DNA of 64,000 nt from Waddliaceae bacterium (GCA_963771045.1 CAVYRW010000004.1:1248001-1312000), one strand, 5' to 3'. Positions 9,499 through 12,556 are shown, counted from the first letter of the stretch. A program made the numbers and translations. Notes: a model not told the origin generated them from the sequence alone.

Positions 9499-11519
9499 AG
9501 CTGCTGAAATTTCTCTACCATTTTCTCGGAAGCGTTTACTTCGCCGTTTCCATTTTAGTGTGTTTGATTCTGCTGACCACTTTGGGAACTTTCATTGAGT
9601 CGTATACCAAATCGCATTTATTTGCTGCCAATCTCACATACCACAATCCTCTCTTTGCCGCCCTTCTTTGGATGATGTTTGTCAACATCCTTCTTGCCTC
9701 CTTAAGACGATGGCCTTTTAAAAGGAGGCATATTCCCTTTCTTTTAACCCATCTCGGTCTTTTGATGATTCTTGGAGGCTGTTTGATCAAAGCCTATTTC
9801 GGAACTCAAGGACAAATGCTCATTGTCGAAGGAAGCGGCAGCGATGAGATTATGATTCCCGGTTCCAGCGTGATTGAGATCCAGGATAAGCAGGGGAAAA
9901 TCGAAACGTTTCCTCTCGATCAATCCTGGCAGATTCCAGAAAACAAAAGACTCAAAGTTGTCGGCTACTACCCTCATCATAAGTCGCAATTTAAAATCTG
10001 GCCTATAGCGCCCGGATGGAATGTGACAGTTCTCGATGAAGGAGATTTTAAGCACGCTGTAAAAGATGAGTTTCTAAACAATCTAACTGTGAGAGTAGTC
10101 GATCGGAAACAAACAACGGTCATTGAAGAAAAAAACGTCCGCGACTCAGAATTTTCCTTCCGCTATGAAAACGGTTCCTTGATTGCAGACAATCAACTGG
10201 AAATTCCGTTAAGCGGCCCCTTAAGTTTGATGACCCTCAACTACAAAGATCATTTGAGGGGCTCCCCATCAACGCTCATTGAACTCAGCCATCCTAAAGC
10301 CGCCATCGTTAAACGAAACAGCGAAAGGAGTTATCAGTTAACGGCAATCGATCAAAACGGAGAAATGAGAACTGAAGAGCTTTCTGACCTTGTCGTCTAT
10401 GACAAGGGATTTGGGGGCATCTATATGCAAAGCTCAATTCCTGCCGCAGAAACCGGCAGGGAAAAAGAAATCCGCCACAAAGAAGCTTTAAAAAGAGTAC
10501 TTTCCGAAGCCCCGGAGCTGACTCCTCCATTGGAAGCGATTCGATCGGCCTGCACTCAAAAACATTTTGCCGAAGCTGCCGTCGGCTTTTTAGCCGAATG
10601 GGATTTATCCAACCAATGGATTTTCCCTCCCGGACACACCTTGTCAAAAGAAAATAGCCGGTTGATGGACCGGATTGACTGGACTTTAATCCCTAAAGAT
10701 CAGCTTAAAAGCGCCTATTTTGCCTCCCTTCTTCTCCAGAATTTTAATGAAAACTCATTAAACGAAGCCCCCTGGAAATACCTCTTGTTAAAAGATCAGC
10801 CGAAAAATACCTATGAGCAGTCTATAATCGAGCAGCTATTCCTTATCTCCACAGACCTTCCCGAACCTCCCGACTTTTACGATTTAACCGCAGGTGAAAA
10901 AGCCAGAGTGATGACAGTCTTGCTGAGAGCTTACGGCATACACCTAAAGACCCTCATACCTCCGGAAGAAGAGCGCCAAAACTTGCGCCGCCTTGAACTG
11001 CCCGTAACCCCTGAATACAATCCGAAAAAACCTTCGAACAAGCTTGAAGAGAATCTTCCCTTAATCCTTGTCCAACTGGAGAGCGGCAAGATAATACCGG
11101 CAGCATACGATCCGTATGGCACCGGCCTTAAATGGCCGCTCCCGGGCAATGAGTTCCTTATACATTTCAAGCCGAAATTCGAGAAACTCCCGTGTCATCT
11201 CAGGTTGAGAGACGCTCGCGAATATCGATATCCGGGATCGGAAGAGCCATTCAGCTACGAGGCCGATATCATCGTATACGGTCCCGGCAAATCCGATCCT
11301 GAGGAAATCACTCTCAGCATGAACCACGTTTATGAAACTTGGAATGGGTATCGATTTTATCTTGCAGCGATTCATTCGGAAGGTGACATGAGAGCCAAGA
11401 AAGTGCAGCTCTCAGTCAATCATGACCCCGCCAGATATCGTCTGACTTATCCTGGCGGAGCCGTGGCGGCGCTTGGCATTATACTCCTTTTATGGCGCCC
11501 GAAATTTTTCCGTCACTGA
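9495..11519 (+). CDS. ResB/Ccs1-like cytochrome c biogenesis membrane protein
   Basis: N-terminal TMs (LGTFIES; THLGLLMILGG), large soluble region, C-terminal SMNH...VNHDP plus TM. Confidence 0.7.
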   Translation: MKLLKFLYHFLGSVYFAVSILVCLILLTTLGTFIESYTKSHLFAANLTYHNPLFAALLWMMFVNILLASLRRWPFKRRHIPFLLTHLGLLMILGGCLIKAYFGTQGQMLIVEGSGSDEIMIPGSSVIEIQDKQGKIETFPLDQSWQIPENKRLKVVGYYPHHKSQFKIWPIAPGWNVTVLDEGDFKHAVKDEFLNNLTVRVVDRKQTTVIEEKNVRDSEFSFRYENGSLIADNQLEIPLSGPLSLMTLNYKDHLRGSPSTLIELSHPKAAIVKRNSERSYQLTAIDQNGEMRTEELSDLVVYDKGFGGIYMQSSIPAAETGREKEIRHKEALKRVLSEAPELTPPLEAIRSACTQKHFAEAAVGFLAEWDLSNQWIFPPGHTLSKENSRLMDRIDWTLIPKDQLKSAYFASLLLQNFNENSLNEAPWKYLLLKDQPKNTYEQSIIEQLFLISTDLPEPPDFYDLTAGEKARVMTVLLRAYGIHLKTLIPPEEERQNLRRLELPVTPEYNPKKPSNKLEENLPLILVQLESGKIIPAAYDPYGTGLKWPLPGNEFLIHFKPKFEKLPCHLRLRDAREYRYPGSEEPFSYEADIIVYGPGKSDPEEITLSMNHVYETWNGYRFYLAAIHSEGDMRAKKVQLSVNHDPARYRLTYPGGAVAALGIILLLWRPKFFRH

Positions 11520-12556
11520 AAAATCGGAAAGGTCGTCAAGCTCATCATCAGCACTCCATTCATCGTCGGTTTCACCTTCTGAACTTGAAGTGCTGTATTC
11601 GACTTCAGACTCCGAACTGGCATAAGTACTATATTCATCGGTTTCAGCATATGAGCTGAATAGTACCCCACTCATCATCGCTTTCAGTATCCTGAGCTGA
11701 CAAAGCTCCACTCATCGTCGCTTTTGGTAATCTGAGGCGTTATATATCCAGAATGCCCTAATTCGACTTGGTTCCTATAATTGCCGCCCAGAGCATTTTT
11801 CAAAATTTTCGTCAGTTCAAATTTCGTCTAGCATTTCCAAATCGATAGCAGATACTTTAGGGTCAACTTTTCTCAGATTGTTTCTTGTCTGCATAATGTC
11901 ATCCCGCGACACCGGATATTGAGGAAAATTATGTCTACTCCCGGCAAGTTGGCTCCGCATTTTTTCTTTGGCCTGTTGTACGGGCTGTTCTGTTTTTTTC
12001 AATTTAGCTCTTTTCGCCTGAATTTTTAGCTTCCATAAGGCTTTTTTCATGAAGTTCTTTACCTTTCTCTTTTCCTTTTTGCTCATTTTCTATACATTTC
12101 ATCGACTTTTTCCCGCATCTGCGGAGTCAAGTTTTTATAGACTATTTGAGCCACATCATCATCTGATCGAACGTCCCCTTTAATATTGCCTATCACAAAA
12201 GGTTTAACCCTCTTTTCGATAGCTTTAAACTCACCCTTGGCTTCTTCGCCAAAATAATTTTTATAGGTGTTTCCAACCCGGTCTAATTTCAAATAGGCAT
12301 TTGCAACTAAATTATTGGTATGCACATTCACAATTCCCATAGTCATTTCAAATGTTTGTTCGATAGCATTGACAACATCCGTTCTCTTGCTTGCAAAGTA
12401 CCACCAGCTACGATCCTGATCCAGTTTCCCTGTATTGAGATCTACTGACAAATAAGTATTTATAGGAAGATTTTTTAAAGTTTCGAGATTAGAAAATGCA
12501 ACAGAGATTTCTAATTTACAAGCAAAAGGATTTCTTTCGCACCCCTTGACAGACAT
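11490..12556 (-). CDS. Probable single gene (frameshift-split) encoding a WH2-WH2-Central-Acidic (WASP/RickA-like) protein
   Basis: ORFs 12083-12556, 11817-12086 (AKLKKTE; DIMQTRNNLRKVD) and 11490-11711, plus off-frame segments ELTKILKNALGGNYRNQV and SDDEW at 11708-11722 and 11668-11682; TDDEW at 11556-11570. Confidence 0.6.

Follow-up and report, generated by a model that had tools for sequence, protein, structure and literature searches.

A putative WASP-like gene family of environmental chlamydiae, with an N-terminal domain in common with giant-virus proteins

The minus strand of a 64,000-nucleotide stretch of a Waddliaceae bacterium genome (GCA_963771045.1, CAVYRW010000004.1:1248001-1312000; hereafter the window) carries, at 11490..12556, three broken reading frames that are one real conserved gene. 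Its predicted product joins an N-terminal domain, which by fold model and profile is common to giant-virus proteins, to a tail in which two WH2-like units, a central-like helix and an acidic end follow in the order of the WH2, central and acidic (W-C-A) parts of WASP-type activators of the Arp2/3 complex. We regard this tail as a credible but formally imperfect W-C-A mimic in a real gene of an undescribed family. The likeness, as read from sequence, is one of layout, and neither WASP-family membership nor orthology to RickA or TarP is claimed.

One conserved gene and its family

The three open reading frames (ORFs), 157, 89 and 73 codons long, are flanked on one side by the gene of a coiled-coil LysM protein and on the other by a ResB-like gene that is convergent with them. 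They belong to one gene because an intact 345-residue orthologue occupies the same site in a genome of the same genus (G001) and further intact copies exist in G002, G003 and G005. The window aligns to the G001 protein with 68% identity (236 of 345 codons giving the same residue) and with no stop codon on the aligned path. Matches to the 157-residue piece occur in four of five genomes labelled Waddliaceae and in none of 35 other genomes; each is a single open frame of 327-456 codons adjoining the ResB-like gene, and the LysM gene stands upstream in G001, G003 and G005 as well, the G002 contig stopping inside the gene. A reading made from the sequence alone had joined the three hypothetical ORFs into one gene and proposed looking for intact homologues in chlamydiae, and the four intact same-family copies at this site bear out the union. 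Its reading path fared less well: it had postulated one missing base near 12085 and three extra bases, whereas the alignment shows seven switches (near 12100, 12027, 11969, 11934, 11822, 11689 and 11670) and not four. The direct join near 12085 is rejected, the alignment running instead through a third frame, from which come the 24 residues that link the first ORF to the second, and two stretches of the 89-codon ORF lie out of frame; the proposed architecture was thus right and the path through it wrong. The ratio of non-synonymous to synonymous divergence (dN/dS) from G001 is 0.25 (dN 0.18, dS 0.73), and 23 neighbouring genes range from 0.04 to 0.31. The protein collection stores the window gene as fragments of 157 and 77 residues. 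The parts of the gene and its immediate surroundings are as follows.

11490..12556, minus strand: whole gene, which the present assembly shows as eight frame segments, aligned end to end with the intact G001 orthologue
12179..12508, minus strand: predicted folded domain at the N-terminus, made up of a helix, a short beta hairpin and then three helices, from structure model, Foldseek and viral profile
12028..12100, minus strand: charged long-helix linker in the third frame, identical at 21 of 24 positions to residues 155-178 of the orthologue, within model helix 147-190
11991..12026, minus strand: first WH2/thymosin-like unit, the end of a helix with LKKT (11991-12002); in the orthologue a predicted helix finishes with the LKKT at 187-190
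11865..11909, minus strand: WH2-like unit 2, short helix plus LRKV (11865-11876); orthologue helix 218-227, then LKKV at 228-231
11765..11818, minus strand: central-like amphipathic helix, ELTK from 11818; orthologue helix 245-268
11490..11722, minus strand: Ser/Asp/Glu-rich tail with three DDEW words, predicted disordered (predicted local distance difference test score, pLDDT, below 50 over orthologue residues 266-336)
12562..12567, minus strand: ribosome-binding-site-like word AAGGAG, seen in the sequence, preceding the ATG at 12556
12596..12624, minus strand: weak candidate sigma-70-like promoter, TTGAAA-17-GACAAT, a consensus match and one of 7 such sites against 3.3 expected in the region
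9480..11519, plus strand: ResB-like cytochrome c biogenesis gene (PF05140, 41.8 bits over cut-off), convergent neighbour and anchor of the conserved site, present at the orthologous loci
12657..13850, minus strand: coiled-coil LysM protein gene (PF01476 over cut-off), upstream neighbour

The broken state of the window copy raises the question of whether the gene is mis-assembled or decaying. The genome that contains the window (G000; five contigs, 2.57 Mb, 90.6% complete) is broken elsewhere as well: 16 of the 23 neighbouring genes are free of frame switches and the other seven hold one to five each (16 switches in 29.7 kb, mean 0.54/kb), with five in sucB, two in lpdA and one in sucA, names that are our own reading of the sequences, and zwf and guaB are also split. 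The splits in lpdA, zwf and guaB had been pointed out in the sequence-only reading. Because sucB, lpdA, zwf and guaB are split too and the aligned path holds no stop, we consider that the window gene was probably broken by assembly error. True decay in the source strain is unlikely, although it would fit the density of switches, which, with seven over 1.04 kb (6.8/kb), exceeds that of every other of the 24 genes, the lack of a clear homopolymer link (three of the seven breaks lie near a run of at least four, against a background of 29%), and the dispensability of the gene in G004. Speaking against decay are the absence of any nonsense codon on the aligned path, the low dN/dS, the patchiness with which errors also strike the housekeeping genes just named, and a 158-nt contig from a soil run that departs from the window through one single-base indel in the zone of the last break, a weak point at a depth of 2.5. 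Homopolymer context does not account for the breaks. One DNA sequencing run matched the window (share 0.08), with coverage of 11522-11676 only, and the sequencing-run search listed no RNA run containing it. The same-family genome G004 gave no match to the gene, its ResB-like gene directly abutting a DUF255 gene, and the gene can therefore be lost.

Frame-switched housekeeping genes lie at 92-1458 (lpdA-like), 1463-2558 (sucB-like), 13932-15998 (DUF255-like), 30900-33007 (fadB-like), 45672-47140 (zwf) and 60238-61679 (guaB) of the window, and the annotation of the present assembly therefore undercounts intact genes.

Beyond Waddliaceae, the gene belongs, as judged from sequence comparison, to an undescribed family of environmental chlamydiae whose members mostly lie beside resB/ccs genes. 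A family profile search of 1.84 billion representative proteins gave nine matches, of which four are full-length proteins not met before, two are seeds or near-seeds, one is partial and two are the window fragments; word-index protein searches retrieved few relatives. The close full-length members number nine, the new ones together with P0001, P0002 and P0004, and are 17-40% identical to the G001 protein. Walking downstream of the ResB-like gene at 27 loci (of 45 matches) uncovered relatives of the gene in a further three families (G098, G021, G062), and a ccs gene directly follows the ResB-like gene at 12 of the 27. Two profile searches with the N-terminal domain, each over 400 genomes, matched 21 and 18 genomes and, once weak matches had been removed, added G362, G147 (two genes), G041, G163, G050, G374, G260, G122 and G358. 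Since resB-like or CcsB-like genes are neighbours of 7 of the 10 genes found in this way, the site is old. No family match was found in 29 genomes of the family f35, which we infer from their size of 1.0-1.3 Mb to be Chlamydiaceae. The cultured Criblamydia sequanensis has an intact member, WP_041017624.1, annotated as hypothetical, and all members are named only as hypothetical in their source databases.

Pfam, NCBIfam and PHROGs gave nothing over cut-off on family members; Pfam, NCBIfam and PDB-sequence matches were likewise absent for 4-7 members, a search that included no pairwise comparison with RickA, TarP or SemD. The ESM Atlas held only matches under 0.9 for P0001 and no usable match for the P0004 tail. 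Our literature search, which left effector-prediction tables in supplements outside its scope, found no paper describing such a family and none on Waddlia together with actin and WH2.

Several weak candidates were set aside. The first N-domain profile lost 11 of its 21 matched genomes as weak or unrelated (10 inspected, G177 judged by its twin G218); we take these to be a conserved 720-780-residue chlamydial protein in six cases, adenylosuccinate-synthetase-like proteins in three, a TPR-like protein and a DUF255-like frame. From the second profile, G008 and G048 proved unrelated on inspection and G033, G171 and G127 were removed by length as the 720-residue protein; G167, another weak profile match, was also removed from the family. 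The profile matches the 720-780-residue protein, itself without a Pfam match (L077-L079, L082, L086, L087), at E 1e-4 to 1e-2, which may reflect remote kinship or chance.

A tandem gene pair of Neochlamydia without the N-terminal domain (G069, L063:4086-6930) also came up in the downstream walk, at the same resB/ccs site. Its genes contain poly-Pro, WH2-like, helix and acidic-aromatic words, and the end of one resembles the central-acidic stretch of the G002 protein.

The W-C-A-like tail and the N-terminal domain

The tail is best seen in the G001 model (mean pLDDT 62), in which helices at 147-190, 218-227 and 245-268 precede a disordered tail and a predicted helix stands directly before each LKKT-type word, giving the order W-W-C-A. 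The units read x-[ED]-[LI]-x3-[KR]-x2-L-[KR]-K-[TV], a pattern that we take to recall beta-thymosin more than WASP, no Pfam match supporting the likeness. Among the nine close members the word L[KR][KR][VTA] occurs 10 times, against 0.97 in shuffles, and is present in six; a looser WH2 pattern is repeated in all nine, from which, however, it was derived. Two loose WH2 units followed by an acidic Trp are found in 0 of 1638 G000 ORFs. The loose WH2 and C-A patterns were both written after the family had been inspected, and their P values are therefore not independent. The central-like helix has hydrophobic residues at i, i+4 and i+8 with a basic residue or doublet four residues on, and its hydrophobic moment is only at the 78th percentile. 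An acidic patch within the last 120 residues marks all nine close members and 3.9% of G000 ORFs, and a Trp lies within it in seven of the nine by eye, or in four by the strict [DE]x[DE]W. In G001 the last Trp is 12 residues from the C-terminal end, and at the end of the Criblamydia protein stand a helix, RRR and the stretch SDSDSDEEF.

The three DDEW words of the window lie on the minus strand at 11708-11719, 11668-11679 and 11556-11567, each in a different frame; a six-frame count over the 2.57-Mb genome gives only five such words, three of them here within 165 nt. Every motif placement of the sequence-only reading (LKKT, LRKV, the ELTK helix, the DDEW words) is where that reading had put it, and the WH2-like, central-helix, acidic-Trp order it proposed recurs in both window and G001 model. 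Other parts of its description need amendment. All three DDEW words are present, but the middle one sits at an imprecisely placed break where the orthologue reads DEEG, so that of the three DDEW in G001 only two are at positions equivalent to those of the window. The idea of a nucleation-promoting factor (NPF) mimic with a multiplied acidic motif stands as regards the W-C-A order, whereas the tripling is confined to the window copy and G001, other close members having one acidic Trp or none. The two proposed WH2 units are indeed predicted helices with an LKKT-type word, twice over, yet they agree with neither Pfam WH2 nor the published pattern, and the test it suggested with the WH2 hidden Markov model gave no match over cut-off.

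The N-terminal domain, on the evidence of fold and of reciprocal profile matches, is common to the chlamydial family and to stand-alone giant-virus proteins. Its model (pLDDT 81, 10-row alignment) gave five Foldseek matches at E < 0.001, all uncharacterised giant-virus proteins with template-modelling (TM) scores of 0.64-0.75, and the first 33 Foldseek rows are giant-virus proteins except for two unnamed. Against PDB folds Foldseek gave no match at E 0.001, and the best VIA-align results (Z 7.9) were generic helical bundles. A motif scan of viral contigs yielded 65 loci with 63 ORFs, most of which still score against the chlamydial profile when the motif is masked (best 30 bits). Conversely, when a profile of the viral ORFs is applied, eight of the 14 chlamydial domains (E 5e-10 to 0.02) outrank every one of the 5227 G000 frames, and among these frames the window gene comes first (E 0.044). 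The viral proteins, exemplified by Hokovirus A0A1V0SEY4, Clandestinovirus A0A8F8KM35 and Yasminevirus A0A5K0U7T3, thus agree with the chlamydial family in predicted fold and sequence profile and differ in what follows: the 63 ORFs end at most 50 residues beyond the domain margin, and none has LKKT or an acidic-Trp tail, in a sample in which the motif covers only part of the viral family and which does not extend to some longer viral Foldseek matches. Neither this domain nor the wider family had figured in the sequence-only reading.

The same domain (E 3.6e-11) also begins a 1834-codon coiled-coil repeat protein of G001 (L010:1422-6923, contig C8), where a hydrophobic stretch follows it; G000 has a weak counterpart near C4:1868234.

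Actin-directed function and its alternatives

What could such a protein do? Its architecture and model lead us to favour, at about even chances, a type III-secreted, RickA-like mimic of WASP-type Arp2/3 activators. The protein would be exported into the cytosol of the host, probably a protist, where the two helix-plus-LKKT units would each hold one actin monomer while Arp2/ArpC1 and Arp3 were contacted through the central helix and the Trp-bearing acidic motifs; branched actin might then grow at the entry site or around the inclusion, with the N-terminal domain setting the location of the protein. RickA (PMC11077975) and SidG, whose acidic domain has an essential Trp (PMC12904589), offer precedents, these and the other papers cited here being drawn on in extract.

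Secretion is proposed because the target would be eukaryotic. The SctV/HrcV gene of G000, the one apparatus gene tested, scores 899 bits over the TIGR01399 cut-off, so the chlamydial context assumed by the sequence-only reading does include a type III secretion gate gene. No hydrophobic 19-mer over 1.6 was found in 21 members. As a group the members have an N-terminal Ser/Thr/Pro/Asn share of 0.33 against a background of 0.22 (the background starting at the first Met).

Several results weigh against the favoured account. The N-terminus of the G001 protein itself has a Ser/Thr/Pro/Asn share of only 0.20, at the 36th percentile. Pfam WH2 (PF02205, gathering cut-off 23.1) is not reached by the window pieces, by P0001-P0004 or by any other member scanned, the best score in the family being 10 bits for the near-canonical WH2 of a distant member, G062. 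With definitions of WH2 and C taken from PMC3298513 and PMC7274804, the C region being three hydrophobic residues four apart, a basic doublet and a final hydrophobic residue, the WASP-family WH2 pattern (PMC3298513) is found in none of the nine close and none of 15 distant members, nor in any of the 1638 G000 ORFs; the C pattern is found in none of the nine close tails at a gap of up to three, G001 fitting only at a gap of four, with GG between. Neither a profile of 11 C-A segments nor the G001 tail retrieves a WASP-family chain from the PDB. The proline-rich region before WH2 is missing in P0001 and P0002, including the G001 protein. LKKT-type words occur in only 6 of 15 distant members, with two of the seven words inside the N-terminal domain, and several distant members end without Trp or acidic tail. 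Finally, the members are kin, and enrichment among them therefore demonstrates conservation or constraint, not function. Short proline runs do occur in four of the seven remaining close members, and four of 13 distant members, the Criblamydia protein among them, have the published C pattern within their final 60 residues (background 3.6%); three off-site distant paralogues have no WH2-like, C-like or acidic parts.

The failure of every formal WH2 test and the want of any WASP match are what would be expected if the gene had no connection with actin, its product then combining a domain of giant-virus type with a charged tail of low complexity, in which the LKKT and DDEW words would be meant for some different partner or for no partner at all. 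The absence of such a tail from all 63 viral members and the wide variation of distant tails also fit this possibility, which we nonetheless hold to be rather unlikely in view of the conservation, order and proteome rarity of the motifs and of the Neochlamydia pair, which at the same site and behind an unrelated N-terminus carries W/C/A-like words.

The unequal constancy of the tail parts bears on whether an actin-directed protein would need Arp2/3 at all. In the tails of the nine close members no feature is as constant as the helix-plus-LKKT repeat, which is present twice or three times and surpasses both C and Trp in this respect; two of the nine lack a tail Trp. Tandem WH2-like units could by themselves nucleate or sequester actin in the manner of TarP, VopL or Legionella RavH/MavH, with the N-terminal domain as a membrane or oligomer anchor and the tail as a charged spacer; RavH does combine an N-terminal lipid-binding domain with tandem WH2-like helices (PMC13481308). 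Such a secreted effector independent of Arp2/3 seems unlikely to us, because in the close members the last WH2-like unit is followed by a helix and then by an acidic patch, in most cases with a Trp, and because a C-like helix with RR is retained near the end in distant members, even in those where WH2 is not seen.

The same parts might instead serve inhibition: a C-A segment occupying the activator sites on Arp2/3 while degenerate WH2 units deliver no actin would damp the phagocytic or lysosomal actin of the host. Acidic domains are found in both activators and inhibitors (PMC12904589), C. trachomatis TmeB interferes with Arp2/3 (PMC10360934), and the non-canonical WH2 helices, the tripled acidic Trp and the distant members that have C or C-A without LKKT would suit a decoy. 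We find this quite improbable, since LKKT-type words are kept in tandem and in activator order across 17-40% identity.

Among known systems, the class I NPFs (WASP/N-WASP, WAVE/Scar, WASH, WHAMM, JMY; extracts of PMC3298513 and PMC7274804) have the same disordered C-terminal order of two WH2-like units, helix and acidic EW tail; the present family differs in being bacterial, in the non-canonical spacing of its WH2 helices, in lacking WH1, CRIB and WHD and, in the closest orthologue, a proline-rich region, and in showing no detectable homology. Rickettsia RickA, like Listeria ActA and B. thailandensis BimA (extracts of PMC11077975 and PMC9569871), is bacterial, without signal peptide and endowed with NPF-like W, C and A parts. 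Compared by description and not by sequence, our family is set apart from RickA by its giant-virus-shared domain, its phylum and its up to three acidic Trp words. The Chlamydiaceae proteins TarP, TmeA, SemD/CPn0677 and TmeB are also chlamydial, actin-directed type III effectors that nucleate directly or act through host N-WASP, and no C-A module of their own is described in the extracts drawn on (PMC5792643, PMC10182996, PMC10360934); TarP and SemD have WH2-like helices, TarP, according to the same extracts, without LKKT (PMC5792643, PMC10182996). In Legionella, RavH resembles the family as an amoeba-dweller effector with an N-terminal domain and tandem WH2-like helices (PMC13481308), and SidG does so in its acidic Trp domain (PMC12904589). 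RavH/MavH and SidG differ as type IV substrates, and those extracts do not ascribe the combination of W, C and A to either of them.

Wider window and significance

The window has further features of its own. A 3.3-kb low-GC insert (5576-8871; 36.8% against 44.6%), missing from G001, is flanked by a 161-bp direct repeat of 87% identity (5415-5575, 8872-9032) and contains a YopJ-family acetyltransferase at 5906-6961 (PF03421, 46 bits over cut-off), likely an effector. At 17460-19023 lie 1564 bp with an ORF, presumably transposase-like; they are 99.9% identical to G001 between flanks of 82-92%, and this segment therefore appears to be a recently shared insertion element. ORF fragments at 15996-16527 and 17119-17529 we take to be leucine-rich-repeat-like and F-box-like, and genes of these two kinds are typical eukaryote-like chlamydial genes.

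It is quite possible, though short of even, that these data describe an old family of direct Arp2/3 activators in environmental chlamydiae, in which a giant-virus-shared domain was fused with WH2-like, central and acidic motifs of independent evolutionary origin, which has held one chromosomal site across many families, and which was lost in Chlamydiaceae when these switched to hijacking host N-WASP. The window gene exemplifies how indel-rich assemblies hide lineage-specific effectors. The family is open to test because there is an intact member in the cultured Criblamydia sequanensis and there are look-alikes in Neochlamydia. Its N-terminal domain links a widespread giant-virus protein to a probable role in the host cytosol. 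A built-in W-C-A module, if confirmed, would be a different route from that of the Chlamydiaceae effectors and an independent case of bacterial NPF mimicry beside RickA, ActA and BimA. It would be the first chlamydial W-C-A mimic and a first handle on how environmental chlamydiae enter or remodel protist cells.

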